The notes beneath the pieces are model-generated. The model had not been told where the DNA came from and ran no database searches. It was given only the letters and a program-made list of their open reading frames with translations. Source: a bacterium (lineage in GTDB: Bacteria > JADJOY01). From it: a DNA stretch of 46,305 nucleotides. Both the position numbers and the translations under genes were made by a program. The stretch is taken from positions 1 to 46,305 of the forward strand of contig JAXLQJ010000058.1 of assembly GCA_046331705.1 (NCBI GenBank). Direction: 5' to 3'. Numbering within the stretch: position 1 is the stretch's first letter; the number at the start of each line of letters is the position of its first letter. Of this stretch, positions 8,339-44,533 are shown piece by piece.

Positions 8339-10147
8339 TCAGGCATCGAAGAGCTCGCTGCGCATCGCGAGCGTGAGGCCGTCGCTCGCCAGCAGGCGGC
8401 GCGCGAGGCCGGCGAGCTTGGGAAGCTCGTAGCCGTAGAAGTAGCGGAACGTGACGAGCTTCCCTTCGTAGAAACGCGCCTCGGCGGGCGCCGGCTCGCG
8501 CGCCAGCGCGCGACTGGCCGCGATGGCCTGCGCGAGCCATTGCCACGCGACGGCAACGAGGCCGAAGAGCTCGAGGTAGAGCGTCGCGTCGGCCAGGAAG
8601 AGCTCGACCTCTCCGCCGAGCGCCAGCCCGGTGAGATGCCGGGTCACGCGCTCGAGCTCGGCGCGGGCTTCGTCGAGGGCCGTGGCCTCCCTCGCGAGAC
8701 CGTCGATGTCGCGCGCCGCGGCGATGGTGCGCTCGAGCTCGCGCAGGTAGAGCAGCAACGGGCGCCCGCCCTCCATCACCACCTTCCGCCCCAGCAGATC
8801 GAGCGCCTGGATGCCGGTGGTGCCCTCGTGGATCGCGTGGATCCGGATGTCGCGATAGTACTGCTCGAGCGGGAACTCGCTGCAGTATCCGTAGCCGCCG
8901 AGGCATTGAAGCGCCTGGCTCACGGCGAGGATCCCCATCTCCGACGGGTACGACTTGGCGACCGGCGTGAGCAGCCCGAGGAGCAACGCGCACTCCTCGC
9001 GCTCGTCGCCGGGCTCGAGAACCGCTTCCAGGTCGGCGTAGTGAGCGCACTTCAGGATCAGACCGAGCGCTCCCTCCACGACCGCGCGCTGGAAGAGCAG
9101 CATGCGCTTGACGTCGGCGTGCTCGATGATCGGGAGCGGCGGCGACGCGGGGTCTCGATCGGTGATCCTGCGGCCCTGCGGCCGTTCGCGTGCGTAGTCG
9201 AGCGCACGATGAAACGCGGCGGACGCGATCGCCGCCGCCGACATGCCCACGTCCACCCGCGCCTCGTTCATCATCTGGAACATGTAGCGCAGTCCCTGAT
9301 GACGCTCCCCCACCAGCCAGCCGCGACAATCGCCGCGCTCGCCGAGGGCGAGCTGGGTGATGGGCGAGCCGCGATAGCCGAGCTTGTGGAAGAGGCCCGC
9401 GACGGCGACGTCGTTGTCGATCAGCCGGCCGTGCTCGTCGAGGCGCTTCTTCGGCACCACGAAGAGCGAGAGCCCCTTCATGCCGCGCGGGGCGCCTTCG
9501 GTGGTGGCGAGCAACAAGTTCACCACGTTCTCGACGCCGTCGTGATCGGCGCACGAGATGAAGATCTTCTGGCCGCGGATCCGGAAGTATCCGTCCGCGG
9601 TGGGAACCGCGAGCGTCCGCACGTCGGCGAGCGACGAGCCCGCCTGGGGCTCGGTGAGCGCCATCGTTCCCTGCCACTCGCCGGCGAACATTCGCGGCAC
9701 GTAGGTCTCGATCAGCTCGCGCGAGCCGAACGACGCGATCAGCTGCGCGGCACCCGAGGTGAGCGCCGGATAGACCGACGCCGAGTAATTCGCCGCCGAG
9801 AAGATGCCGCGCGCAGCCGCCAAGAGCGCGCCGGGAAGCTGCTGTCCGCCCAGCTCGAGGGGCGCGTGAGCGCCGATCCACCCCCCTTGCCCCCATTCGC
9901 GCATCACCGTCCGCACCACCGGGTGCACCCGGATCGCGCCGTCCACCAGCTCCGGCGGCCGGCGGTCCATCTCCTCGAACGCGGGCCACAGGATGTCGGC
10001 GGCCATCCCGGCCGCGGTGTCGAGCACCGAATCGAAGGTGTCGCGATCGTGAGCGGCAAACTGCGGAAAACGCGTGAGCGACTCGAGATCGAGGACCTCG
10101 TGGAGGACGAAACGCAAGTTCCGCAGGTGGATGAACGTCGGCGCCAC
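8339..10147 (-). CDS. Acyl-CoA dehydrogenase (~600 aa, DmdC/FadE5-like size class)
   Basis: 'GTMALTEPQAGSSL', 'GQKIFIS', 'FQMMNEAR', 'LGGYGY', 'IHEGTTGIQALDL'. Confidence 0.93.
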   Translation of the reverse strand: MAPTFIHLRNLRFVLHEVLDLESLTRFPQFAAHDRDTFDSVLDTAAGMAADILWPAFEEMDRRPPELVDGAIRVHPVVRTVMREWGQGGWIGAHAPLELGGQQLPGALLAAARGIFSAANYSASVYPALTSGAAQLIASFGSRELIETYVPRMFAGEWQGTMALTEPQAGSSLADVRTLAVPTADGYFRIRGQKIFISCADHDGVENVVNLLLATTEGAPRGMKGLSLFVVPKKRLDEHGRLIDNDVAVAGLFHKLGYRGSPITQLALGERGDCRGWLVGERHQGLRYMFQMMNEARVDVGMSAAAIASAAFHRALDYARERPQGRRITDRDPASPPLPIIEHADVKRMLLFQRAVVEGALGLILKCAHYADLEAVLEPGDEREECALLLGLLTPVAKSYPSEMGILAVSQALQCLGGYGYCSEFPLEQYYRDIRIHAIHEGTTGIQALDLLGRKVVMEGGRPLLLYLRELERTIAAARDIDGLAREATALDEARAELERVTRHLTGLALGGEVELFLADATLYLELFGLVAVAWQWLAQAIAASRALAREPAPAEARFYEGKLVTFRYFYGYELPKLAGLARRLLASDGLTLAMRSELFDA

Positions 10148-10172
10148 GACACGACCTCCCGCGCGGATCGGA

Positions 10173-10931
10173 TCAGAGCCCGCCGCTCGCCGCGACCTCG
10201 GCGATGCACATCGCTTGATTGCGGTCCTCGAGACGAATCGTCTCCTCGAGCGTCATCCCGCCCGCGCTCAGATCGATCGCCTCCTTGGTGAGCCGCAGCC
10301 CGAGCGGCGACTTGCTCGCCAGGTTCTCGGCGAGCGCACGCGCCTCGGGCAGCAAGGCGGGAAGCTCGACGATCGCCTGGACGAAGCCGATCCGGTGGGC
10401 CTCGGCTGCCGGCAGCTTGTCGCCGCTCAGCAGATAGCGCGCGGCGTTCCCCGCGCCGACCGCGCGCGTGAGCAGCCACGACGAGCCCATGTCCGCGCCG
10501 CCGAAGCCCAGGTTGATGTACGCCGCCTGGAACACCGCCTCGGCGGTCGCGAGCCGGATGTCGCACGCCATCGCGATCGAGAAGCCCGCTCCCATCGCCG
10601 GGCCGTGAATCGCGCCGATGATGGGCTGCGGCAAGCGCCGGAGCTTCAAGATCATCTCCGAGAACGTGCGCTGCGCCACGTACGCCTGGCGCGGCGAGTA
10701 CGCGCCGCCCGTGATGGTCGGATCCTTGATGTCGAGGCCGGCGCTGAAGGCGCGACCGGCGCCGGTCACGACGAGCACGCGGGTGTCGAGATCGCGGGCG
10801 CGCTCGTCGAGCCACGCGTGCAGCTCGTCGCGCATCACGAAGTTGATCGCGTTGAGGCAGCGCGCGCGATCGAGGGTCAAGACGCCCACCGGGCCATGCT
10901 GCTCGTAGCGCAGGGTTTCGTACGCGGTCAT
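10173..10931 (-). CDS. Enoyl-CoA hydratase/isomerase (crotonase) family protein
   Basis: 'VTGAGRAFSAGLD', 'PQPIIGAIHGPAMGAGFSIAMACDIR'; GGAGG RBS; 25 bp upstream of the ACAD start. Confidence 0.92.
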   Translation of the reverse strand: MTAYETLRYEQHGPVGVLTLDRARCLNAINFVMRDELHAWLDERARDLDTRVLVVTGAGRAFSAGLDIKDPTITGGAYSPRQAYVAQRTFSEMILKLRRLPQPIIGAIHGPAMGAGFSIAMACDIRLATAEAVFQAAYINLGFGGADMGSSWLLTRAVGAGNAARYLLSGDKLPAAEAHRIGFVQAIVELPALLPEARALAENLASKSPLGLRLTKEAIDLSAGGMTLEETIRLEDRNQAMCIAEVAASGGL

Positions 10932-11180
10932 GCGTCCTCCTGGATGACGGGAAAGCCTCGCGCGGCGAGATCGTCGGCGGAGTCCTCGAAGCCCGGCATG
11001 CGCGTGAGCCTCGGCTCGAGCGGGACGCCGCTCGCCAGCGGCCAGGCCGGCCCGCCGACGATGGCCTCGGGCTCCTTGCCGATCACCGGATTCATCCTCG
11101 TGGCGTCCACGTGCTCGAGGTCGGATAGCACCAGACGCGTCGCAGCGGCGAGCGCGGCCGCGAGCCGCCGAGCGGGTGCG

Positions 11181-16833: not shown

Positions 16834-18288
16834 TCAACGAGCGCCGGAGCGCGCCCGACCCGCGGGGCGATCCGCGCGCCGCCGTCCTGCGCTCGCGGCG
16901 CGCCGCGCGAGGCGCACCAGCGCACGGACCTCCACCGCGATGGCCGCGGCCATGACGTCGACGTCGCGCGCGCTGTCGTAGTCGCCGGTGATGCCGAACG
17001 CGATCCGGCCGTCGTAGGAAAGCGCAGCCGTGCCGACCCGCACGCCCTGGATGATCGGCACGTACGGCAAGCACTCGAGCAGCGTCCGACCGAGGCAATG
17101 GAGCGTGAACGGCGGACCCGGGACGTTGGTGACGACGGTGTTGATGGCGCGTTGCGGGAGCTGGTGCATGGCGCGGGTCACCAGCCGCGTCACCGTGCCG
17201 ACCACCATCGGCGGAGCGAGATCGCCGAGCTCGGTGGCCCATTCGCCTGCCTCGACCATGTGGGAGCCCTTGAGCTCGGCCATCTGCGCCGAGAGCACGC
17301 GTAGCCGTTCCCGCGGATCGGCGAGGTGAACCGGCAAATCGCAGAGCAGCGCGGAGACGCGGTTGTCGCTGATTCCCCTCGCGTCGGCGGTGCGCACCGA
17401 CACCGGCACCAGCGAGCGGATTCCGGCAGGGCCGATCGGCTCGCCGCGATGGAGCAGGAGCGCGCGGATGCCAGCCGTGACGGCCGCCAGCACCACGTCG
17501 TTCACGGTGCCACCGAGCCCTTTGCGCACGGTGCGCACGTCGTCGAGGGTCACCGACGCGTGGGCATAGACCCGGTGGGTTCCCACCGTGCCCACGATCG
17601 ACGAGGGTGGCTTGATCAGCAAGCGCCGCGCGAATCCGATCAGTCCCTGGCCGGTCTCGACCACCGCGCGCACGCCGTCGGCGGGGTGCGTGAGCCCGTC
17701 GCGTGTCTTGCGCGCCCAGGCGAATGCATCGCCGGCCAGGCCGCGCCACGCGTCCAGCACCAGCGCGAGATCGGACGGCTCGGCCGCGGGAGTCCACGGC
17801 ACCACGTCGGGCAGCCGCGACTCGCGCTCGGTGTCGAGCAACGCGGCCAGGAGCTCGATGCCCGAGATCCCGTCCACCAGGCAATGGTGGATCTTCGAGA
17901 TCAGCGCCCAGCGACGCCCCTTCAATCCCTCGACGACCCAGGCCTCCCAGAGCGGCCGGTCGCGATCGAGCGGCTGGGACATGATGCGGCCCATGAGATT
18001 GCAGAGCGCCCGATCGTCGTGGGGCGCGGGCAACGCCGTGCGTCGCAGGTGGTAGCCGAGATCGAAGCGCGGATCGTCGATCCACACCGGGCGGCCGAGC
18101 TCCAAGGGCACGAAGCGGACGCGCTGCCGGTAGCGCGGGACCTGGTGCAGCTTGGAGCGAAAGAGCGCCTCGATCTCCGCCGCCTGCGGCACCGGCCCCG
18201 CGAAGATCGAGATGCACGCGATGTGCATCGGCGCCGCGGCGTCCTCGAGATGGAGGAATTGCGCGTCGAGCAGGTGTAGGCGCTGCAT
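16834..18288 (-). CDS. Wax ester synthase/diacylglycerol acyltransferase (WS/DGAT)
   Basis: 'LDAQFLHLE...PMHI', catalytic 'HHCLVDG', 'GTVNDVVL', 'TNVPGP'; GGAGG RBS before ATG 18288. Confidence 0.93.
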   Translation of the reverse strand: MQRLHLLDAQFLHLEDAAAPMHIACISIFAGPVPQAAEIEALFRSKLHQVPRYRQRVRFVPLELGRPVWIDDPRFDLGYHLRRTALPAPHDDRALCNLMGRIMSQPLDRDRPLWEAWVVEGLKGRRWALISKIHHCLVDGISGIELLAALLDTERESRLPDVVPWTPAAEPSDLALVLDAWRGLAGDAFAWARKTRDGLTHPADGVRAVVETGQGLIGFARRLLIKPPSSIVGTVGTHRVYAHASVTLDDVRTVRKGLGGTVNDVVLAAVTAGIRALLLHRGEPIGPAGIRSLVPVSVRTADARGISDNRVSALLCDLPVHLADPRERLRVLSAQMAELKGSHMVEAGEWATELGDLAPPMVVGTVTRLVTRAMHQLPQRAINTVVTNVPGPPFTLHCLGRTLLECLPYVPIIQGVRVGTAALSYDGRIAFGITGDYDSARDVDVMAAAIAVEVRALVRLARRAASAGRRRADRPAGRARSGAR

Positions 18289-18676
18289 TCGGACCTCCGT
18301 GAGGCTCCTCGGTTGCGCCGCCTCGCAAGCCACCACGCCGCCCGCGACAGCGCGGGCATCCGACGCAGCGACCGCGCGCGGCCCGAGCGATCCGGCTCGG
18401 TCGCGCGACGATCGCGAGCGATTCGCGTGACGGCGCACGAGCGCGCGACGACGCGTGGGATTCTGGCCCGCCGAGAAGCCCGCCACAACCGTCCCCGTCG
18501 AGACGCAGCCGCGCGGCGCTCGCGCACGAGTTGCCGGCCGGGCTCACCACGACGCGAGTGGAGCGCGCCCGCGGGAGCCGCTCGCCCCAGGGACTGGAAC
18601 CTCGGCGACTCCTGCAACATGATCCAGGCGTGGCGTCCGTGTCGGCGGTTCCGCACGGCCCACGGCGAGGCTCTGA

Positions 18677-24822: not shown

Positions 24823-25179
24823 TCAGCGCCGACGTGCAGGCTTGCTCTCCTTGCGGTCGACGTCACGCCCGTACGCGCCGTGACGATCGAAACGTCCTTC
24901 CCAGAAGCGCCGATAGCGCTCGAGCCAAGCGTCCACGTCGCGCAGCGGCGCGGCGCGCAGCCGGCAAGGCCGCCACTGGGCGTCACGCCCCCGCTCGACG
25001 AGCCCGGCGCGCTCGAGCACCCGCAGGTGCTTCGAGATCGCCGGCAGGCTCATGTCGAAGGGCTCGGCGATCTCGGTGACCGAGGCCTGACTCGAGGCCA
25101 GGCGCGCGAGGATCGCTCGCCGTGTGGGATCGGAGAGCGCGGCGAAGGTCGCACTGAGCGAGTCGGCGGCGAGGGTCAT
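24823..25179 (-). CDS. ArsR/SmtB-family transcriptional regulator
   Basis: 'FAALSDPTRRAILARL', 'SLPAISKHLRVLERAGLV..GRDAQWRPCRL'. Confidence 0.9.
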   Translation of the reverse strand: MTLAADSLSATFAALSDPTRRAILARLASSQASVTEIAEPFDMSLPAISKHLRVLERAGLVERGRDAQWRPCRLRAAPLRDVDAWLERYRRFWEGRFDRHGAYGRDVDRKESKPARRR

Positions 25180-25180
25180 G

Positions 25181-25212
25181 ATAACCTCATGGTTAATTAA
25201 CCCTTTGGTTAT
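25181..25212. promoter_or_regulatory. Double palindromic operator (TAACC-N4-GGTTA x2), probable ArsR autoregulatory site
   Basis: ataacctcatggttaattaaccctttggttat: AT-rich, dyad-symmetric, immediately upstream of the ArsR start. Confidence 0.75.
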
Positions 25213-25939
25213 CTACGACGCCCCGAGCTCCTCGTCAACTCGCGTTCAGAGCGCTCCCACGACGAGCGCGACGCGACGCCCCGCGAGACCCGCGCACGAC
25301 GCGGCTTCCGCGCGACGCCATCGAGAACACCAGCGCGCGGTGGGGTGTCACGAAAGCGGAAACGCTCGAGCGCGTCACCGGCGCCATTTCGTCTCGTCGC
25401 GGTAACAGCGCCCGTCACGCACGGTCACGGCTCCGTGATCGAATTGACGCGCTGAGCCACGAAAAGGCGTGGGCACGCTCGGTAACGTCGTCTGCCGTCT
25501 CGCGCGACGGCGTACCGGAGAATCCTCCTCACTGCGAATCCTGGCTCCGCGCTCGTAACGCCGGTGTCCTTCCGACGAGTCGCGAGCTCACGACTTGCCC
25601 GCAGCAGCGGCGTCCGTTGCGACGTCACGGTGCCGCCGACGCGTTTCGTTACGAGCGCGTGTCCAGAAACGGCGCACGCGACCTCGCGCGGCGCGTTGCG
25701 ACGCAGGGCGTCGAAACCGGCCACGACGCGCACCCGTCGAGCGACGATCGAAGCTGGCACGCATCTCGCGAGGGAGCGCATCCAAGCCACGCGCGACCAG
25801 GGATGAGGACGCGCAGCGATCGACGCCCGCTTCGGGTCGTCCACGGCATCGTCGCGCACGCGATGCATGGAACCCCGAGGATGGCTCGAAGTTCGATCCG
25901 CACCCGCACCACTCGGTGCGGGAGGAGGAGAGCAGGATC

Positions 25940-27604
25940 ATGGCCGGTCTGGACAAGGAGACGTTGGACGCAGCGATCGCCGCGCTGCACCAGTTCGCGA
26001 CACGAAAGCTGCCGGACGCGACGTTGCTCGAGCTCGACGCCCGGGACGAGTTCCCCGAGGCGATCGTGCGCGAGATGTGCGGTGCCGAGCTCGGCATCCA
26101 GCTCTTCTTCATCCCCGAGGAGTACGGCGGGATGGGCGGCGGCGCCTTCGACCTCTACCGGATCTGCGAGCAGATGGGGCGCATCGACGTCGGTGTCGCG
26201 ACCGGCGTGCTGGCGACGTTCCTGGGCAGTGACCCGATCACCGTGGGCGGCACGCCCGAGCAGAAGACGCGCTACATCGGGCGCATCGCCGAAGAGGGGA
26301 TCCTGTTCGCCTACGGCGCGACCGAGCCGGAAGCCGGCAGCGACCTCGCCGCGCTGCGCACCACCGCGACGCCCGTGGAGCGAGACGGTCGGGTCGTCGG
26401 CTACAAGCTCGACGGCGCCAAGCAGTGGATCTCGAATGGCGGCGTCGCCGATCTCTACACGATCCTCGCCAACGCGCCCGCCGGGCCGAGCTGGTTCGTG
26501 GTCGACCGCGACACCCCGGGCTTCGGCAAGGGAAAACCCGAGGACAAGCACGGCATCCGCGCCAGCAACACCGCGCCGCTCACCCTCGACGACGTCTACG
26601 TGGACGCTGACCGGCTGGTCGGCGGCGTCGAGGGTCGAGGCCTCGTCCAGGCTCAGGCCGTCTTCGGCTACACGCGGCTGATGGTGGCGGCTTTCGGTCT
26701 CGGCGCCGGCTGGGCGGCGCTCGACCGCGCCATTCCCTATTCGACGAACCGAATCCAGGCGGGCGGTCCGCTCTCGGGGAAGCAAGGCTACACGCACAAG
26801 CTGATCGTGCCGCACGTGGTGCGACTGGAAGCGGCGCGCGCCTACATGGAAGAGGTGGGCGAGCGCATCGACGCCGGCGAGGAGCTGCTCAACACCGAAG
26901 GCGCGATCGCCAAGCTACTGGCGACCGAGGCAGGCAACGCCGCAGCCGAAGCGTCCATCCAGGCCCTCGGGGGCTACGGCTACACGAAGGAGTACCTGGT
27001 CGAGAAGATCAAGCGCGACGTGCGCATCACCACGATCTACGAGGGCACCTCGGAGATCATGGAGATGACCATCAGCCGCGACCGCTGGCAGCTTCATCTC
27101 AAGACGCGCGGCGCCCACTACCACGACGAGGCGCGCCGTCTCGAGGCCATCCACGCCGGCGAGCCGCGCGTGGGCGCCGACGTGGCCGCGCTCGCCTGTC
27201 ACGCGCTGGCGGAAGTGCTGGAGCGCGCCCGCGCCGCACGGCTCACGCGCCACCAGCACGTGCTCTTCCGCCTCGGCGCGCTCATCGCGCAGGCGGAAGG
27301 TGCTGCGAGCGCCGTGCGACGCGCCCATCGCGCGGCCACCGGCGCGGCGCATCCCAAGACCGCCGAGCGCTTCGATGCCACGACGCTCGCGGCGCTGAGC
27401 CGCTCGTTCGCCCGGGAGGCGGCGCTCGCCGTCGCGTCCGACGGGCTGCGCTGGGTGGTGGGCGCCGACGGCGTGGCGCAGCACGACGTGGCGGGGTTCG
27501 AGGCCGCGATCGGTCTCGCCGCCATCCACCGTGCGCAACAGGGAACCCTCGCGGACCTGGACCGGATCGCCGACGCCCTCTACGGCCGCGGCGCATCCGC
27601 CTGA
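25940..27604 (+). CDS. Acyl-CoA/acyl-ACP dehydrogenase-family flavoprotein with C-terminal extension, first gene of the synthase operon
   Basis: '[12 protein letters not shown]', 'GAKQWISNG', 'LGGYGY', catalytic 'IYEGTSEI'; purine-rich RBS; 554 aa. Confidence 0.9.
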
Positions 27605-27646
27605 TTCCACCCGAGCGCTCGATGTCGGGCGCCAAGAGAGGAAGCG

Positions 27647-36396
<8,750 letters not shown>

Positions 36397-36455
36397 AGGA
36401 GTCGATCCGCCCATCCCGCGGCGAGCGCCACGCCCGACCGCGCGAGCGAGGCACC

Positions 36456-39400
36456 ATGTCCCGTGACTTCACGCGCATCGCGATCCTCGACCGTGCCGAG
36501 CCCGCGATGCGTTTCCTGCACGCCGCGCGCGAGCTGTCGCGCGAGGCGCCCGACTCTCCGCCGCTCGTCACCCTCGCGTTTCACACCGAGCCCGACCGCG
36601 GCGCCCCCTTCGTCCGGCGCTGCGACGAGGCCTACGACCTCGGATCCGCCGCCTTCGTCGACGAGCACGACGGGCGCCGCAAGAGTCGCTACCTCGACTA
36701 CGCCAGGCTGACGCGCGCGTTCCGCGAGACCGGCGCCGAAGCGGCGTGGGTGGGCTGGGGCGTCATCGCGGAACAGGTGGAGTTCGCCGAGCTCTGCGAG
36801 CACCTGGGCATCGTCTTCATCGGTCCACCGTCCCACGCGATGCGGGTGCTGGGTGACAAGATCGAGGCCAAGCGCATCGCCGAGCGCTGCGGGATCCCGG
36901 TGGTGCCCTGGAGCGCCGGCGCCGTCGAGACGCTCGACGAGGCGCGCACGCACGCGGAGCGCCTCGGCTACCCGCTGCTCTTCAAGTCGCGCGCCGGTGG
37001 CGGCGGACGCGGCATCCGGCGCATCGAGCGTCCCGACCAGCTCGCGGAGGGATTCGAGCGAGCACGGCGGGAGGCGGCGCTGGCGGTGGGTGATCCCACG
37101 GTGTTCCTGGAGCGCGCCGTCGAGGGCGCCCGCCACGTGGAGGTGCAGATCGTCGCCGACGCGCACGGGCATACCTGGGCCGTGGGCGTGCGCGACTGCA
37201 CGATCCAGCGGCGCCACCAGAAGCTCATCGAGGAGGGCCCCTCGCCGGTGCTCGCGGAGGAGCAAGACCGCGCGCTGCGCGCGATGGCCAAGCGGATCGC
37301 GACGGCCGCCGGATACGAGAACGCCGGGACCGTCGAGTTCCTCTACGACCCTGCGAGCCGTCGCTTCACCTTCCTGGAGGTGAACACCCGCATGCAGGTC
37401 GAGCATCCCGTGACGGAGCTCACCACCGGCCTCGACCTGGTCAAGCTGCAAGTGCAGATCTCCCGCGGCCTGGTGCTCGACGGCGAGCCGCCGCCGTGCA
37501 CGGGCCACGCCATCGAGGTGCGGCTCAACGCCGAGGACCCCGCCCGCGGCTTCGCCCCCGCACCGGGGGAAGTGGTGGCGTTCCGCGCCGCCAACGGTCC
37601 GGGGATCCGCGTCGATGCCGGTGTCACCGAAGGCACCGTGGTCACGTCCGACTTCGATCCGATGCTCGCCAAGCTCATCGCCTGGGGGCGCGATCGCAAC
37701 GAGGCGCTGGCGCGCGTCGAGCGCGCGCTGGCGGAAACGGTGGTGCTGCTGCGCGGTGGCGCCACCAACCGCTCGTTCCTCATGGGCTTGCTCGCCCACG
37801 AGGGCTTCCGCGAAGCGTCCATGGACAGCGGCTGGGTCGACCGCAACGCGGCGCTGATCCTGGAGCCGCCTGCGCGGCTCGCCGAGCTCGCGTTGATCCA
37901 AGCGGCGCTCGCCGTCTACGAGACCGAGCTGGCGCGCGAGCGCAAGGACTTCTACCGCGCCGCCGCGCGTGGCCGTCCGCGCGTCCGCGAGCAGATCGGC
38001 TACGTCGCCGATCTGCGCCTGCGCGGTCAGAGCTACAAGCTCGCGGTGCACCAGCTCGAGCCGAACCTCTATCGCGTCGAGGTGGGCGGACGCAGCCTCG
38101 AGGTCGCCGTCGAGCTGGCGAGCGGCTTCGAGCGCTGGCTGGTGTGCGCGGGGCGGCGCCATCGCGTCGTGTCGCTGGTGGACGACGACCATCTGCTCGT
38201 CGAGATCGAGGGCACGATGCACCACATCGCGCGCGACGACGCCGGCGTGGTGAGGGCGCCATCGCCGGCGGTGGTGCTCGAGGTCTCCGTCGAGGTGGGT
38301 CAGCGGGTACGCACCGGTGAGCGCCTCGCCGTTCTCGAGGCCATGAAGATGGAAGCTCCGGTGCTGGCACCCATGGCCGGCCGCGTGCGCCAGGTGATGG
38401 TGATCGCCAACCTGCAGGTGAACGCGGGCACGCCGCTGGTCGTGCTCGAGCCCGTCGAGCGCGCGGAGACCGAGGAAACGCGTGGGCGACTGAGCTTCGA
38501 GCTGCTGCGCGCGGAGTCGGGTGGGAGCGCGGACCTCGCGACCCGCTGCCTCCGCAACCTCGACACGACGCGACGGCTGATGCTCGGGTACGACGTCGAT
38601 CCGTCGGAGGCGAAGCGGCTTTCCACGGAGCGACCGCTACTCTGCCGCGACGCGAGCGGCGGGATCGAGCGGCTGCTGGCGCGCGAGGACGAGATCCTGT
38701 CGATCTTCGCCGACCTGCGTTCCCTGTTCCGCCGGGAGCCGCCCAGCGAGCGCCCCGACGCGGCGGAGGCACCGCGCAGCGAGGAATACCTCTTCACGTT
38801 CGTGCGCTCCCTCGACCGGGCGGGGCGCGAGCTGCCGCCCGCGTTCCAGGAACGCCTGCGGCGAGCGCTCGCGCATTACGGGTGCACGTCGCTCGCGCCC
38901 GCGCCCGCCCTCGACGACGCGCTGGTGCGCATCTTCAAGTCGCGCCAGCGGCTGGAGGCCCAGGCGCAGGTGGTGCTGCGCATCCTCGAGGAACGGCTCC
39001 ATCGCATCACCGAGCTGCGGGCCCTCGCCACCGACGGCTTTCGCGGCGTCCTCGACGACCTGATCGCGGTCAGCCAGAGCGCGTCTCCTGCGGTCGCCGA
39101 CGTCGCGCGCGAGGTGCGCTTCCGATTCTTCGACGAGCCGCTCTTCGAGGCGGCGCGCGCCCAGGTCTACGCCGAGATGGAAGATCACCTCGCGCGGCTG
39201 GTCGCCGAGCCCGCTGCCGCGGACCGCGCCGCGCGCATCGCCGCGCTGGTCCACTGCCCGCAGCCGCTGGTGGGCGTCTTCGCCAACCGACTCGCCGGTG
39301 CCGAGCTGCCGCTGCGCCAGCTGATGCTCGAGGTGCTGACGCTGCGCTACTACCGGATCCGCGACGTCGCACCAGTGCTCTGCTGCGACCGCGACGGCAC

Positions 39401-42044
39401 GAGCATCGCCATCACCGCCTACCGCCACGAGGGAAAGCAGATCCACGTGGTGGCCACCCACGCCGAGTACACGGCCTTCCCGCACGCCATCTCCCGCCTC
39501 GCGCCGATCCTCGCCGAGCTCCCCGCCGGCGAGGACGTGGTGGTCGATCTCTACGGCTGGCGCGCCGCCGCGCTCCGGGACCCGGAGTCGACGGCCGCCG
39601 AGCTCACCGAGTGGATCGGCAAGCTCGCGCTCGATCGCCCGCTCCGGCGACTCGTCGTGGTGCTCGGCGGTCGAGGCGAGGGCCGCGGCCTCGCGAGCGT
39701 CCAGCACTTCACGTTCCGCCCTGGCGCGGACGGCTACGGCGAGGAGCGAGTCCATCGGGGCATGCACCCCATGATGGGCAAGCGCATGCAGCTCTGGCGG
39801 CTCGCGAACTTCGACATCGAGCGGCTGCCTTCGGTCGAGGACGTCTACCTGTTTCGCGGCGTGGCGCGCACGAACCCCAAGGACGAACGGCTCTTCGCCA
39901 TCGCCGAGGTTCGCGACCTGACACCCGTCCGCGACGCGACGGGTCGCGTGACCCACCTTCCCTACCTCGAGCGCATGCTCATGGAAGCGCTCGCCGGCAT
40001 CCGCCGCTTCCAGGGGCAGCGCCCGCCACGCGAGCGGCTCTTCTGGAATCGCGTGCTGCTCTACGTTCGGCCGCTGCTCGATCTCTCCGTGGAGGATCTG
40101 AGCACCGTCGTGCACGCGCTCGCACCCGCCACCCAGGGCCTCGGACTGGAGCAGGTCGTGGTGCAGGCGACCATTCCGGATCCGGTGACGCGCGAACCGC
40201 TCGATCGCGTGATCCGAATCTCGAATCCGCGTGGCGCCGGCTTGAGCATCACCACGGGGCCGGTGCCGCTGCGTCCGCTCCAGCCGCTCAGCGAGTACGA
40301 CCAGAAGGTCGTGCGCATGCGCCAGCGCGGGCTCGCCTATCCCTACGAGGTGATCCGGATGCTGACGCCGCCACGCGATTCGGCGGCGGCGGAGCTGCCG
40401 CCCGGCGAGTTCACGGAGCACGACCTCGACGAGAGCGGCGAGCGCTTGGTCCCCGTCGAGCGGCAGCCCGGGCGGAACTCGGCGAACGTGGTGGTCGGCG
40501 TGATCCGCAACTTCACCGCCGAGTACCCGGAGGGCGTGACCCGGGTGATCGCCCTCGGCGATCCCAGCAAGGCGATGGGCGCCGTCGCCGAGCCGGAGTG
40601 CCGGCGCATCAACGCGGCGCTGGCGCTGGCACGCGAGCTCGGCGTGCCGTTCGAGTGGTTCCCGATCTCCGCCGGCGCCAAGATCTCGATGGAAAGCGGC
40701 ACGGAGAACATGGACTGGATCGCGCTCACGCTGCGCCGCCTGATCGAGTTCACGCAGGCCGGCGGCGAGGTGAACGTGGTCGTCAACGGCATCAACGTGG
40801 GCGCCCAGCCGTACTGGAATGCCGAGGCGACGATGCTGCTGCACACCCGCGGCATCCTGGTCATGACGCCGCAGGCGGCGATGGTGCTGACCGGCAAGCA
40901 GGCGCTCGACTACTCCGGCAGCGTCTCCGCCGAGGACAACTTCGGCATCGGCGGCTACGAGCGAATCATGGGGCCGAACGGCCAGGCCCAGTATTGGGCG
41001 CGCGACGTCGGGGAGGCGGCACAGATCCTGCTGCGCCATTACCAGCACACCTACGTCGCCCCCGGCGAGCGATTCCCGCGCCGCGCGGCGACCCACGACC
41101 CGCTCGATCGAGACGTGTGCGCGTCGCCGCATCCCCCCGTCGAAGGATCGCCGTTCGTGCGTGTCGGCGAGATCTTCGCCGCGGACAAGAACCCCGATCG
41201 CAAGCTTCCCTTCGACATCCGCAGCGTGATGCAGGCGGTGATCGACGCCGATCACCCGCCCCTCGAGCGTTTCGGGGCGATGCGCGACGCCGAGATCGGC
41301 GTGGTGTGGGACAGCCACCTGGGCGGCTTTCCGGTGTGCCTGATCGGCATCGAGTCGCATCCGTTGCCGCGGCTCGGCTTCCTGCCCGCCGACGGACCGG
41401 AGAAGTGGACCGCGGGGACGCTCTTCCCGCGCTCCTCCAAGAAGATCGCGCGCGCCATCAACACCGCCAGCGGCAACCGGCCGGTGGTCATCCTCGCGAA
41501 TCTCTCGGGCTTCGACGGCTCGCCCGAGTCGATGCGCGAGATGCAGCTCGAGTACGGCGCCGAGATCGGACGCGCGGTGGTGAACTTCCGCGGCCCCATG
41601 GTGTTCTGCGTCGTGTCCCGCTACCACGGCGGCGCTTACGTGGTGTTCTCCGGCTGGCTGAACGAGAACCTGGAAGTCGCGGCGGTGGAGGGCTCGTTCG
41701 CGTCGGTGATCGGCGGCGCGCCGGCCGCCGCCGTGGTCTTCGCCGGCGACGTCGAGGCGCGCGCCCGCCGCGACGGTCGCGTGGTGGCGCTCGAGGAGCG
41801 CATCGCCGCCGCCGACGGCGCCGAGAAAGCACGCCTGCGCGCGCAGCTCGACACCCTCTACCGCAGCGTCCACTCGGAGAAGCTCGGCGAGGTTGCCGCC
41901 GAGTTCGACGGAATCCACAGCATCCAGCGCGCGCTCGCCGTCGGCTCGCTCGATCGCATCCTGCCACCCAGCGAGCTCAGGCCCTATCTGATCGATGCCG
42001 TCGAGCGAGGCATCCAGCGCGCCAGCGAAGGAGCACCGCGATGA
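36456..42044 (+). CDS. Single-chain multidomain acetyl/acyl-CoA carboxylase (BC-BCCP-central region-CT), 1862 aa
   Basis: BC 'GGGGRG', 'RDCTIQRRHQK', 'EVNTRMQVEHPVTE'; biotin site 'EAMKM' (Lys codon 38346); CT-like 'SAGAKI', 'ANLSGFDGS', 'GGAYVV'. Confidence 0.9.
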   Translation: MSRDFTRIAILDRAEPAMRFLHAARELSREAPDSPPLVTLAFHTEPDRGAPFVRRCDEAYDLGSAAFVDEHDGRRKSRYLDYARLTRAFRETGAEAAWVGWGVIAEQVEFAELCEHLGIVFIGPPSHAMRVLGDKIEAKRIAERCGIPVVPWSAGAVETLDEARTHAERLGYPLLFKSRAGGGGRGIRRIERPDQLAEGFERARREAALAVGDPTVFLERAVEGARHVEVQIVADAHGHTWAVGVRDCTIQRRHQKLIEEGPSPVLAEEQDRALRAMAKRIATAAGYENAGTVEFLYDPASRRFTFLEVNTRMQVEHPVTELTTGLDLVKLQVQISRGLVLDGEPPPCTGHAIEVRLNAEDPARGFAPAPGEVVAFRAANGPGIRVDAGVTEGTVVTSDFDPMLAKLIAWGRDRNEALARVERALAETVVLLRGGATNRSFLMGLLAHEGFREASMDSGWVDRNAALILEPPARLAELALIQAALAVYETELARERKDFYRAAARGRPRVREQIGYVADLRLRGQSYKLAVHQLEPNLYRVEVGGRSLEVAVELASGFERWLVCAGRRHRVVSLVDDDHLLVEIEGTMHHIARDDAGVVRAPSPAVVLEVSVEVGQRVRTGERLAVLEAMKMEAPVLAPMAGRVRQVMVIANLQVNAGTPLVVLEPVERAETEETRGRLSFELLRAESGGSADLATRCLRNLDTTRRLMLGYDVDPSEAKRLSTERPLLCRDASGGIERLLAREDEILSIFADLRSLFRREPPSERPDAAEAPRSEEYLFTFVRSLDRAGRELPPAFQERLRRALAHYGCTSLAPAPALDDALVRIFKSRQRLEAQAQVVLRILEERLHRITELRALATDGFRGVLDDLIAVSQSASPAVADVAREVRFRFFDEPLFEAARAQVYAEMEDHLARLVAEPAAADRAARIAALVHCPQPLVGVFANRLAGAELPLRQLMLEVLTLRYYRIRDVAPVLCCDRDGTSIAITAYRHEGKQIHVVATHAEYTAFPHAISRLAPILAELPAGEDVVVDLYGWRAAALRDPESTAAELTEWIGKLALDRPLRRLVVVLGGRGEGRGLASVQHFTFRPGADGYGEERVHRGMHPMMGKRMQLWRLANFDIERLPSVEDVYLFRGVARTNPKDERLFAIAEVRDLTPVRDATGRVTHLPYLERMLMEALAGIRRFQGQRPPRERLFWNRVLLYVRPLLDLSVEDLSTVVHALAPATQGLGLEQVVVQATIPDPVTREPLDRVIRISNPRGAGLSITTGPVPLRPLQPLSEYDQKVVRMRQRGLAYPYEVIRMLTPPRDSAAAELPPGEFTEHDLDESGERLVPVERQPGRNSANVVVGVIRNFTAEYPEGVTRVIALGDPSKAMGAVAEPECRRINAALALARELGVPFEWFPISAGAKISMESGTENMDWIALTLRRLIEFTQAGGEVNVVVNGINVGAQPYWNAEATMLLHTRGILVMTPQAAMVLTGKQALDYSGSVSAEDNFGIGGYERIMGPNGQAQYWARDVGEAAQILLRHYQHTYVAPGERFPRRAATHDPLDRDVCASPHPPVEGSPFVRVGEIFAADKNPDRKLPFDIRSVMQAVIDADHPPLERFGAMRDAEIGVVWDSHLGGFPVCLIGIESHPLPRLGFLPADGPEKWTAGTLFPRSSKKIARAINTASGNRPVVILANLSGFDGSPESMREMQLEYGAEIGRAVVNFRGPMVFCVVSRYHGGAYVVFSGWLNENLEVAAVEGSFASVIGGAPAAAVVFAGDVEARARRDGRVVALEERIAAADGAEKARLRAQLDTLYRSVHSEKLGEVAAEFDGIHSIQRALAVGSLDRILPPSELRPYLIDAVERGIQRASEGAPR

Positions 42045-42835
42045 GCTCGGCGACGACGACGGTGCGCTATTGGTCCTGCCCGGCGAGCGACGTTCCCGCC
42101 CACGACGAGTGGCTCGCGCCGTTCGAGCGCGACGCGTTGCGACGCTTCCGCGCACCGAAACGCCGCGCGGACTGGCGACTGGGGCGGTTCACGGCCAAGC
42201 GTGCGGTGGCGATGACGCTGGCCCCCGACGCGCCTCCTCCACGCTCGATCGAGATTCGCGCCGCCGCGAGCGGCGCACCCGAGGCCTGGCGCGAGGGACG
42301 CCGTTTGCCCTTGCGCATGTCGCTGAGCCACAGCGCCGGTCTCGCGATCTGCGCCGTCGCCACCCCCGAGTGGCGCCTCGGCTGCGATCTGGAGCGCATC
42401 GAGCCGCGCGCGCCGGTCTTCGAGCGCGATTTCTTCACCGACCGCGAGCAACGCTGGCTGGCGCCCGTGACCAGCGCCAACGCCCGGGCCGCATGGCTCA
42501 CCCTGCTGTGGAGCGCGAAGGAGAGCGCGTTCAAGGCGATCGGCGAGGGGTTGAGGCTCGACACCCGCAGTGTCGAGCTGCGCGCGCTCGCGCCAGCCGA
42601 CGAGGAATCCCCCGCGCCGCCCCCTCGAGACGACGACGGACGTGATTCCCACGGCGCGGTCGCGCACGCGCGGCTGCTCGCCGAGCGGCGCACTCCCGGC
42701 ACCGAGTGGGAACGCTTCGTCCTCGCGGACGCCGAGCGAGCCTGCTCTTGGTTCGGATGGTGGAAGACCGACGGCGACTGGGCGATGACCGTCGTCACCA
42801 GCGAGCGTGCGCCCGCGCCGGTTCTGCTCGGGTGA
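42041..42835 (+). CDS. Sfp-type 4'-phosphopantetheinyl transferase
   Basis: 'KRRADWRLGR', 'SLSHS', 'GCDLE', 'WSAKESAFKA'; ATG overlaps the carboxylase stop (ATGA). Confidence 0.9.
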   Translation: MSSATTTVRYWSCPASDVPAHDEWLAPFERDALRRFRAPKRRADWRLGRFTAKRAVAMTLAPDAPPPRSIEIRAAASGAPEAWREGRRLPLRMSLSHSAGLAICAVATPEWRLGCDLERIEPRAPVFERDFFTDREQRWLAPVTSANARAAWLTLLWSAKESAFKAIGEGLRLDTRSVELRALAPADEESPAPPPRDDDGRDSHGAVAHARLLAERRTPGTEWERFVLADAERACSWFGWWKTDGDWAMTVVTSERAPAPVLLG

Positions 42836-43261
42836 TCGAGCCGCAACGCGGCGTAGCCAGCCGGCCGCAACCGAGCGACGGACGCGCGACGAACCGGCTC
42901 GCGCACCCGACCGTGGCCGGGTGCGCGTCGCAGCGACGAGCGGTGCGACGGCCCGAATCCGTTACCCCTCGGTAGTCGGCGGACGTCGCGCGAGCGGGAT
43001 CCCGTCACCGTCCGCGCAGCGGCGGCGCGCCGTCGCCGAGCCGCCTGGGGACCGTTCGCCGTCGTGACCCGCCGAGAGTGTTGAGCAAGCGGCGACCGCG
43101 CTGGCGGGCGCGCGGACCTCCGGACGGTTCACGGCTCACGGCGTCGTGCTTGCTCCAGCACCACGTAGCCGGTCGCGGGACGGGATCCGTCCCTGGTCGT
43201 ACCGGAACGTGGGGCGTTCCCGTTCGCCTCCCATCGGGTTGCCGGCTTCGGGAGCTCGTCC

Positions 43262-44533
43262 ATGAGACCCGTGGAAACGCGTGGGCGCGTGCTCGGACGG
43301 TCGCTGGTGACCGCGCTCGCGAGCGCGGTGTGGATCCTCGCGGGCTGTCCGCCCACCGACGTCGATCCATGCCTCCACCAGGTGTCGAGCGATGGCTTCG
43401 GCGATGCGAAGAATCGCTACGCCTGGTCGATGAAGGAGTTCGCCTCCACGCTCTACGTCGGCACCCTCAACACCATCGACGCCAGCGCCACGCCGGATGG
43501 GGAGCCGCTCGCGACCGCCCCCGGCGACCCGCGCGACGCCACCGAGGGCACACAGATCTGGCGCTTCGACGGCACGGCGTGGACCAACGTCGTGAGCGCG
43601 GGCTTCGGCGATCTCGGCAACGAGGGCGCGCGCAACCTCGAGGTGTTTCGCGGTGCGCTCTACGCGGGAACGCTCAACGTGACCACCGGCGCCGAGGTCT
43701 GGCAGAGCGACGACGGGCTCGCGTGGACACAGGTCAATCCCGACGGCTTCGGCAACCCCGCCAACACCTCGGTTCGAGGCATGACGGTGTGGCGCGACCG
43801 GCTGTGGGTCGGCACCGTCAACCAGCAGGGCGCCGAGGTTTGGTCGTACGACGGCACCACCTGGACGAACGCCGCCGCAGGCGGCATCGGCGACCCGACC
43901 AACGACACCGTGGCCGACCTCTTCGCCTTCGAGGACCGCCTCTACGCGGGGACCTGGAACGAGGGCGGCGCCCAGCTGCATCGCTTCGACGGCACGAGCT
44001 GGGAGCAGCTGGTGGGTCCGACCGCCGCTCTTGGGCCGGGCTTCGGCGACGCGGCGAACACCGGCATCTTCACCATCCTCGACTTCCACGGCGCCCTCTA
44101 CGTGAGCACCCGAAACTTCGTCGAGGGATTCTCGGTCTGGCGTTCCGCGGACCTGGGCGCAACCTGGCAGCGAGTCGTGGCCAACGGCTTCAGCGACCCG
44201 CGCCAGCGCTATGGCTGGCGCATGCACGTCCACGATGGCCAGCTCTACCTCGGCACCTGGGTGAGCACCACCGGCAGCGACGCGTTTCGCGTCGGCGGCC
44301 GGCTCTACCGGACGAGCGATGGCACCAGCTGGGTCCAGGAGGTCGGCCCGTTCGGAACGCTCGCGCCACCCGGCATCGGCGACGATCTCAACTACGGCAT
44401 TCGCACCTTCGAGAGCTTCCAGGGCAGCCTGCACATCGGCACGGCCCAGTGCTTCTTCTGCGACTTCCCCGTCACCGGCCTCGAGGTGTGGAGACGCGAC
44501 TCGAGCTGTCCGGGCTCGAGCCCGACGGGCTGA
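43262..44533 (+). CDS. Secreted lipoprotein with ~50-aa repeats, probable beta-propeller
   Basis: Lipobox 'ILAGC'; repeats of LYxGT..G.xxW...G..W..V..xGFG(D/N). Confidence 0.75.
   Translation: MRPVETRGRVLGRSLVTALASAVWILAGCPPTDVDPCLHQVSSDGFGDAKNRYAWSMKEFASTLYVGTLNTIDASATPDGEPLATAPGDPRDATEGTQIWRFDGTAWTNVVSAGFGDLGNEGARNLEVFRGALYAGTLNVTTGAEVWQSDDGLAWTQVNPDGFGNPANTSVRGMTVWRDRLWVGTVNQQGAEVWSYDGTTWTNAAAGGIGDPTNDTVADLFAFEDRLYAGTWNEGGAQLHRFDGTSWEQLVGPTAALGPGFGDAANTGIFTILDFHGALYVSTRNFVEGFSVWRSADLGATWQRVVANGFSDPRQRYGWRMHVHDGQLYLGTWVSTTGSDAFRVGGRLYRTSDGTSWVQEVGPFGTLAPPGIGDDLNYGIRTFESFQGSLHIGTAQCFFCDFPVTGLEVWRRDSSCPGSSPTG

Follow-up and report, generated by a model that had tools for sequence, protein, structure and literature searches.

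The DNA analysed here (hereafter, the window) is a stretch of 46,305 nt, contig JAXLQJ010000058.1 of assembly GCA_046331705.1 (GTDB lineage Bacteria; JADJOY01), read on the forward strand. The host is an uncultured Myxococcota bacterium from activated sludge, and its genome (8.17 Mb, 118 contigs, GC approximately 71%) is 95.7% complete. The window carries an operon of four genes, which encode a flavoprotein of the acyl-CoA dehydrogenase (ACAD) family, a PfaA-like iterative type I synthase, a predicted single-chain acetyl-CoA carboxylase (ACC), and an Sfp-type 4'-phosphopantetheinyl transferase (PPTase) (Table 1). Genes were called from lists of open reading frames (ORFs) and codon-position GC, domains were assigned with Pfam and NCBIfam models, and motifs were read off the translations. 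The original prediction for this DNA had described four co-oriented genes with two short gaps and an overlap, and all of these were found where it had placed them on the plus strand. The gap between the ACAD and synthase genes is 42 nt (27604 to 27647), and that between the synthase and ACC genes is 59 nt (36396 to 36456). In the ATGA at 42041-42044, the stop codon of the ACC gene overlaps the start codon of the PPTase gene.

Table 1. Genes of the operon and domains of the synthase (KS, ketosynthase; AT, acyltransferase; ACP, acyl carrier protein; KR, ketoreductase; DH, dehydratase; PKS, polyketide synthase; BC, biotin carboxylase; BCCP, biotin carboxyl carrier protein; CT, carboxyl transferase)
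Feature	Position	Strand	Basis and remarks
ACAD-family flavoprotein	25940-27604	+	Pfam ACAD N, M, and C domains; 554 aa
PfaA-like iterative type I synthase, KS1-AT-KS2-ACPx4-KR-DH	27647-36396	+	Pfam; ~2916 aa if read through
KS1	27665-28906	+	PF00109 + PF02801, residues 7-420; Cys-His-His as DAACAS, HGTST, and SNIGH
AT	29453-30340	+	PF00698, residues 603-898; GHSLG and HAFH
KS2, complete ketosynthase	30437-32200	+	Cys-His-His kept
Tandem array, four ACP units, 345-bp period	32514-33872	+	TRF; each unit [11 protein letters not shown]
KR (TGAAGGI, YSAAN)	34618-35292	+	PF08659, residues 440-664 of 33301 frame
PKS-type DH ([10 protein letters not shown]; HxxxGxxxxP)	35515-36348	+	PF21089 + PF14765
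Single-chain carboxylase, BC-BCCP-central-CT	36456-42044	+	Pfam; 1862 aa
Sfp-type PPTase	42041-42835	+	PF01648 (ACPS family); 264 aa

The best NCBIfam model for the synthase was omega_3_PfaA (686 bits; cut-off, 1010). The AT scored 200.7 bits against the FabD model (cut-off, 260.9), and its HAFH motif presumably denotes malonyl specificity. Because KS2 keeps the Cys-His-His residues, it is a second ketosynthase and not a chain-length factor (CLF); the catalytic Cys, His, and His were retained in 221, 220, and 222 of 223 long KS2 matches, respectively. The synthases of the relatives described below are uninterrupted single ORFs of 2700-3200 aa (2949 aa in locus L012). A search of the ESM Atlas returned generic KS clusters only, one of them labelled Thermoplasmatota. 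The original prediction had seen no enoyl reductase (ER), thioesterase (TE), PfaB, PfaC, PfaD, or CLF. In agreement with this, Pfam gave no ER, TE, or FabA-type DH match across the cluster, no PfaB, PfaC, or PfaD was found in the window, and the retained Cys of KS2 argues against a CLF. Its inventory of ACC, HAFH-type AT, two KS domains, KR, DH, and PPTase was also borne out, and its count of four ACPs stands as assembled only.

The carboxylase carries BC, BCCP, ACC_central, and CT domains on one chain (Pfam), which is a eukaryote-like layout. Its N-terminal third resembles the alpha subunits of MCC and PCC, and its C-terminal 1163 aa gave PDB matches to ACC from yeast, Chaetomium, and human, in the central and CT regions. 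The enzyme is predicted to supply malonyl-CoA. A long-chain acyl-CoA carboxylase of the LCC type was considered as a candidate and dropped because the C-terminal half matches the eukaryotic ACC central and CT regions. Citations here and below refer to those parts of each paper that were available. Among characterised bacterial enzymes with this layout, SACE_4237 of Saccharopolyspora erythraea comes nearest; it is likened to the window ACC by its BC, BCCP, eukaryote-type central, and CT regions on one chain (PMC6491548). In contrast to SACE_4237, an essential housekeeping enzyme of an actinobacterium, the window ACC is an accessory gene in a synthase operon, and the genome also has accA. A dedicated carboxylase was found in three forms: the single chain of the window, CT-BC-BCCP genes 3' of the PPTase gene (G079), and three subunits encoded 5' of the synthase gene (L104 and L119).

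Conservation of the gene order and the Type R class

Relatives were searched for in one genome per species, and 492 were confirmed; gene order was counted in the best 80 of these loci (hereafter, genome loci). Clustering at 50% gave 701 representatives with E<=1e-30, and 150 were examined as distant representatives. In addition, a metagenome set of 79 loci was found with an alignment query, a single-protein query having given none. The genome loci came mostly from Terriglobia (Korobacteraceae included), together with one from Binatia, one labelled 'Verrucomicrobiia', and one from a 'Deltaproteobacteria'/Myxococcota metagenome-assembled genome (MAG); the last of these, L001, was the closest relative of the window among the 80. 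The ACAD gene lies immediately 5' of the synthase gene in all 71 testable genome loci. A single-chain ACC gene lies immediately 3' of the synthase gene in 66 of 73 under a strict filter, with partial matches in two more (L044 and L064), and in five loci without an ACC gene the PPTase gene abuts the synthase gene. The PPTase gene was present in 71 of 73 loci. The complete four-gene order was seen in 61 of the 68 fully testable genome loci; the arrangement is therefore far beyond chance, and conservation in other genomes, which had been proposed as a check, was confirmed.

The ACADs were 70-73% identical to that of the window, the synthases 60-65%, the ACCs 56-60%, and the PPTases 40-50%; the value for the synthase refers to loci of Terriglobia and Korobacteraceae MAGs and not to the genes named in the 2011 paper discussed below. 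None of the genes flanking the operon in the window recurs in any related locus, L001 included. Hence the four genes behave as a separate block, and their surroundings offer no hint of the product. In a quick, midpoint-rooted tree of the ACADs, the window and L001 (support, 99) were sister to 66 Acidobacteriota rows (support, 98), and G079 and G387, genomes of an unrelated family, fell outside. L056, the MAG labelled Verrucomicrobiia, has a complete etfBA-ACAD-synthase-ACC-PPTase block, and the nested position of its ACAD within Terriglobales in this tree suggests that the block was mis-binned or recently transferred. The genome that carries L001, G001, gave two adjacent matches each for accA and for fabH and a synthase call of 1909 aa, as would be expected of a long-read assembly with many indel errors.

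A class with this architecture, the Type R secondary lipid synthases, was catalogued in 2011 (Shulse & Allen 2011, PLoS One, PMC3098273). Type R is described there as one pfaA homologue with the order KS-MAT-CLF-ACP(3-6)-KR and a PPTase gene downstream. Its members are found in Koribacter, Solibacter, Elusimicrobium, and Roseiflexus, the product is uncharacterised, and in Koribacter an ACC gene lies between pfaA and pfaE (PMC3098273). The window has KS-AT-KS2-ACPx4-KR followed by ACC and then PPTase. Since the domain order, the downstream PPTase, and the intervening ACC match the published description, the operon is assigned, by its sequence, to the catalogued and uncharacterised Type R class. 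The view that the system matched neither known type and was distinct thus could not be upheld, the catalogued architecture extending to the ACC gene of Koribacter. The proposed check for a match to a characterised pathway gave a divided answer: the operon matches a catalogued class, and that class is uncharacterised.

There are also differences from the published account of Type R. The second KS is termed 'CLF' there and no DH is listed, whereas the window has a complete KS2 and a DH. The main text of that paper does not contain the term acyl-CoA dehydrogenase, and the Thr carriers, the genes for electron-transferring flavoprotein (ETF), and the alternative reductases described below go beyond its description of the class (PMC3098273), although the neighbouring ACAD may already appear in its figures or supplements. 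In the literature searched, which leaves most subscription journals outside, no paper besides Shulse & Allen 2011 was found on KS-AT-KS synthases or on an ACAD/ETF partner of a PfaA homologue.

The operon was compared with other lipid and polyketide synthases. It resembles the polyunsaturated fatty acid (PUFA) synthase PfaABCD(E) in its PfaA-like KS-AT-tandem ACP-KR-DH series, its dedicated PPTase, and its top model, omega_3_PfaA. On the other hand, the window lacks PfaB, PfaC (KS-CLF-FabA-type DH2), and PfaD, the score is under the PfaA cut-off, and the synthase chain bears another KS as well as Thr-type carriers. Type I fatty acid synthases (FAS) of actinobacteria and fungi have integral ER and MPT domains, whereas the window synthase has no ER domain and the order KS-AT-KS-ACP-KR-DH. 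The enediyne synthase PKSE has the architecture KS-AT-ACP-KR-DH-PPTase; it is likewise a PfaA-related iterative synthase without an ER, and a fused PPTase is also seen in distant Type R relatives. The window differs from it in the second KS, the tandem ACPs, the partner reductase, and the carboxylase, and contains no enediyne accessory genes.

The gene slot upstream of the synthase

The ACAD has a VLCAD-like architecture with a C-terminal helical extension of approximately 170 aa. The motif IYEGTSE was present in all 126 cluster-linked ACADs, and the extension could be aligned in 122 of them; we take the Glu of YEG to be the MCAD-type catalytic base. An AF2 model of the ACAD (pLDDT, 84; pTM, 0.86) matched the folds of VLCAD, 2z1q, and 3owa over 570-600 columns and ACAD9 over 522, and matched MCAD-type enzymes over only about 390.

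The slot 5' of KS1 was examined in the 79 metagenome loci. An ACAD gene lies upstream in 51, a FabI-like gene 23-56 nt upstream in 10, and an ER of the nitronate monooxygenase (NMO)/PfaD-like type is fused to the synthase in 6. None of the three types was found in 6 loci, and the remaining 6 had too little upstream sequence. Thus, exactly one reductase type was present in 67 of the 73 testable metagenome loci, and two types occurred together in none. The FabI-like genes matched Pfam adh_short_C2 with 222 bits and FabG models with 63-93 bits, and all of the 12 top NCBIfam matches were to FabI (225-261 bits). Among the 150 distant representatives, 13 have an N-terminal NMO/PfaD-like ER and 32 have a C-terminally fused PPTase; an alignment of distant members gave the order ER-KS-AT-KS-ACP-KR-DH-PPTase on one chain. 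One of three reductases in the same slot is, as judged from these comparisons, the pattern of a non-orthologous displacement of one function. This mutual exclusion with the FabI-like genes and the fused PfaD-like ER is the main reason why the ACAD was accepted as the probable missing enoyl reductase.

The loci of the FabI-linked subfamily (L164, L101, L134, L135, L158-L160, L166, and L167) lie on contigs with a GC content of 0.35-0.56. Because a TBP-like gene adjoins the synthase locus in L164, archaeal hosts are suggested for this subfamily.

In 69 of 71 genome loci, etfB-etfA lie immediately upstream of the ACAD gene, the exceptions being L001 and L076. In the PDB, the cluster EtfA of the relatives was best matched by the Bcd-EtfAB complex of C. 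difficile. Bifurcating ETFs invariably have a Gly at position 123 of EtfB (A. fermentans numbering), which permits a second FAD, whereas canonical ETFs have bulkier residues there (PMC12630350). A Gly was found at this diagnostic position of the cluster EtfB in 54 of the 55 readable loci, all of them relatives and not the window. A precedent for an ACAD-type reductase is Bcd, which reduces crotonyl-CoA with electrons from an ETF (PMC12630350). The proposed pairing would resemble Bcd-EtfAB, CarCDE, and the Fusobacterium Ldh-ETF-Bcd system (PMC12630350) as an enoyl-thioester reductase of the ACAD family that is fed by an ETF. It would differ from these systems in that the ACAD has a VLCAD-like form with an added C-terminal domain, its partner is a type I synthase with presumably ACP-bound long chains, and no ETF is linked to it in the window. 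The host genome encodes ETFs at L081 (C30:76812-77759), with a bifurcating-type Gly in EtfB (QAIDGD), and at L082 (C63:26429-27208), with Asp at this position.

The suggested role of the ACAD in the missing redox step thus received strong comparative support, from the single reductase type per slot and from the adjacent etfBA. We infer that the VLCAD-like ACAD is a trans-acting enoyl-thioester reductase of the synthase, which is the best-supported assignment.

Carrier domains and the proposed route

When the four ACP units were aligned to solved ACPs, among them PigH (DLGVDSIALAE) and 2ehs (DLGADSLDVVE), a Thr was found in all four at the position of the phosphopantetheine Ser. The domain core of ACP1 contains no Ser. 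At this position, Thr, Ser, and other residues were counted 396, 0, and 1 (Ala) times in 120 close homologues, 319, 0, and 0 times in the 80 genome loci, 195, 2, and 0 times in the 79 metagenome loci, and 305, 9, and 4 times in the 150 distant representatives. Four proteins account for the nine Ser of the representatives, and one of these has a mixture of Ser, Thr, and Ser. That a Ser occasionally stands in this place shows it to be the functional attachment site. The PPTase keeps the SHS, GxDxE, and WSxKES motifs when aligned to Sfp (1qr0 and 4mrt), and apart from the fusions its gene is nearly always adjacent. No description of Thr-type carrier proteins was found in the literature searched, within which they look undescribed.

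These observations are best accommodated if the Type R operon is a self-contained, iterative FAS-like module that works beside FAS II, with the ACAD as its enoyl reductase and with Thr-armed carriers. We consider this reading probable, its ACAD and Thr steps being predicted from comparison. In the proposed route, the PPTase of the operon would first arm the carriers with phosphopantetheine on the Thr found by alignment, and the single-chain carboxylase would make malonyl-CoA. The AT would load malonyl groups onto the tandem carrier domains, the two complete ketosynthases would elongate the chain, and KR and DH, whose domains and catalytic residues were seen, would process each round. From the displacement of the reductase genes, the ACAD is expected to act in reverse as a trans enoyl-thioester reductase with electrons from an ETF. 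The source would be the dedicated etfBA in most Acidobacteriota relatives and one of the genome's own ETFs in this host. Such a route would be expected to yield a long acyl chain, saturated for the most part. The original prediction is supported in that it saw a lipid synthase module that stands alone and brings its own PPTase and source of extender units.

A broader proposal is put forward tentatively, the balance leaning somewhat against it: the Type R family may form a distinct class of type I FAS. In this class, the arm would be borne by Thr and set only by a co-evolved, sometimes fused PPTase, and enoyl reduction would be a plug-in swapped among a PfaD-like FMN domain, a FabI-like short-chain dehydrogenase/reductase (SDR), and a VLCAD-like ACAD. 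Type R synthases are large, widespread, and uncharacterised, with 492 relatives in species-representative genomes. If the proposals are true, a Thr-armed carrier protein and an ACAD/ETF pair as the enoyl reductase of a megasynthase would be new enzymology. The ACAD/ETF version would drive lipid synthesis through an electron-transferring, possibly bifurcating flavoprotein and would couple chain reduction to the pool of NADH and ferredoxin in soil and sludge bacteria that are for the most part aerobic. In addition, a compact cassette of four to six genes with its own carboxylase, synthase, reductase, and PPTase could be transferred to production hosts without cross-talk to Ser-type carriers.

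Other readings and neighbouring genes

Several observations weigh against a reductive ACAD and Thr-armed carriers. ACADs usually run in the oxidative direction. No etfBA is linked to the operon in the window or in L001, and the ETFs encoded elsewhere in the host genome share only 33-34% identity with those of the cluster. A single diagnostic residue defines the type of the cluster ETF, whose EtfB has a canonical ETF, that of M. methylotrophus (1o94), as its best match in the PDB. The FabI-like matches are under the NCBIfam curated cut-offs, and the displacement pattern is incomplete, 6 of the 73 testable metagenome loci having no adjacent reductase of the three types. Furthermore, phosphopantetheinylation of Thr is undocumented in the searchable literature, and the modification is predicted from the alignment. 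Several of these points would suit a synthase that, like PKSE or a PfaA lacking PfaD, leaves the enoyl group unreduced and makes a polyene, enoyl, or 3-hydroxy lipid. The ACAD would then oxidise either the starter or the completed chain, by desaturating it, shifting a double bond, or trimming it, with or without an ETF, and pass its electrons to the respiratory chain. The lack of an ER domain in the synthase polypeptide, the usual direction of ACAD/ETF, the missing dedicated ETF in the window, and the six loci without any adjacent reductase agree with this. However, an oxidative ACAD would be redundant at this position because KR and DH already give a 2-enoyl thioester. It also occupies the same slot as the FabI-like and fused PfaD-like ERs without co-occurrence, and the cluster EtfB has the bifurcating-type Gly. 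We therefore regard an oxidative role as unlikely. The two complete KS domains, an NCBIfam Pks13 match of 399 bits, and the PccB/AccD-type CT subunits encoded in sister loci could also be taken to mean that the carboxylase activates a long-chain acyl-CoA and that one KS performs a Pks13-like head-to-head Claisen condensation to give a branched, mycolic-like lipid. The Pks13 score is, however, far under its cut-off (2100), the AT is FabD-like with HAFH, the CT region resembles eukaryotic acetyl-CoA carboxylases, and tandem ACPs, KR, and DH suit iterative elongation; this condensation appears very unlikely.

The integrity of the synthase gene also bears on the reading as an active module. The gene is spread over two frames: the phase of GC at third codon positions (GC3) shifts at about 33150, and coding periodicity then runs unbroken to the end of the DH. 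The four ACP units form a 4 x 345-bp array of 97% identity, and their spacing is 339, 338, and 345 nt; therefore, the linker between ACP2 and ACP3 either lacks one base or has two too many, at about 33186-33191 (+). If real, this frame break would truncate the synthase after ACP2, which would count against an active module, and the operon would be a decaying pseudogene here; the 338-nt spacing is indeed present in the assembly. None of the contigs of four activated-sludge runs bridges 33186-33191 (contigs cannot show absence). Those reaching this site from the left run on into post-ACP4 sequence, and those from the right are preceded by pre-ACP1 sequence. In the sister assembly G005 of the same genus, which is 98.8% identical over 14 kb, 100 N replaces the ACP array. 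Because no contig bridges the break, its sides match the outer flanks of the array, and the sister assembly has a gap, the frame break is probably an assembler join, and hence the ACP copy number of four is the count of this assembly only. Since the junction lies inside a repeat that the sister assembly failed to resolve and has no support from any public contig, and since the periodicity is unchanged in the new frame and all remaining domains are intact, decay of the operon has at best a slight chance of being correct. The original prediction had also raised substitution for FAS II and had named fab and acc genes as a check. The operon would have a full set of activities as a primary FAS if the ACAD is the ER. 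However, accA and fabH were found in the same genome above the curated cut-offs (450 and 367 bits, respectively), together with three FabF-sized KS genes, so the operon does not replace FAS II. The family is also patchy: two of four additional species in the genus have it, as do 3 of approximately 395 randomly related genomes and 13 of 300 further genomes in the class of G002. Replacement of FAS II is contradicted for this genome and retains scarcely any probability, and the FAS II genes and the patchy distribution support a secondary role beside FAS II.

Other pfa-like genes occur in the same genome. The locus C9:168000-187900 (L089) encodes an NMO-type ER-KS-AT-ACPx4-KR protein (2786 aa) beside a KS-AT protein (1720 aa), and the locus C23:64000-83900 (L090) encodes a KS-AT-ACP-KR protein of 2796 aa with an AAT-like domain. 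The carriers of both loci have the canonical Ser motif DLGIDSI. As to pfa-type partners elsewhere in the genome, for which a check had been suggested, PfaD-type and other pfa-like genes thus exist at C9 and C23, but they lie within their own clusters with Ser-type ACPs.

A scan of 25100-26000 and 42700-43300 gave no promoter-like site, and in the same regions one terminator candidate (25372-25384) was obtained, which was not above the shuffles (mean, 0.5). In six metatranscriptome runs, 0.07-0.23 of the sampled words of 33900-36400 were present, which is at most a weak hint of transcription of the operon. In 14 DNA runs from eight activated-sludge or digester studies, one of which may be the source sample, the proportion was 0.69-0.91.

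A divergent gene for an ArsR/MarR-type helix-turn-helix protein (24823-25212, minus strand) lies 727 nt upstream of the ACAD gene and is a possible regulator; it occurs in no related locus. A 454-aa ORF directly 3' of the operon (43169-44533, plus strand) has good coding statistics, and it gave no Pfam or NCBIfam match and no counterpart among the related loci. The window also carries lipid-related genes on the opposite strand, namely an MMPL transporter gene (73-2835), a second ACAD gene with an enoyl-CoA hydratase gene (8339-11180), and a WS/DGAT wax-ester/triacylglycerol synthase gene (16834-18543). Among the 80 genome loci, a gene for a GMC-family oxidoreductase follows the PPTase gene in 26 (e.g., L069, 18735-20633), and an ABC1/UbiB-like kinase gene is found on the opposite strand in 28. 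Both of these enzymes may act on the product.

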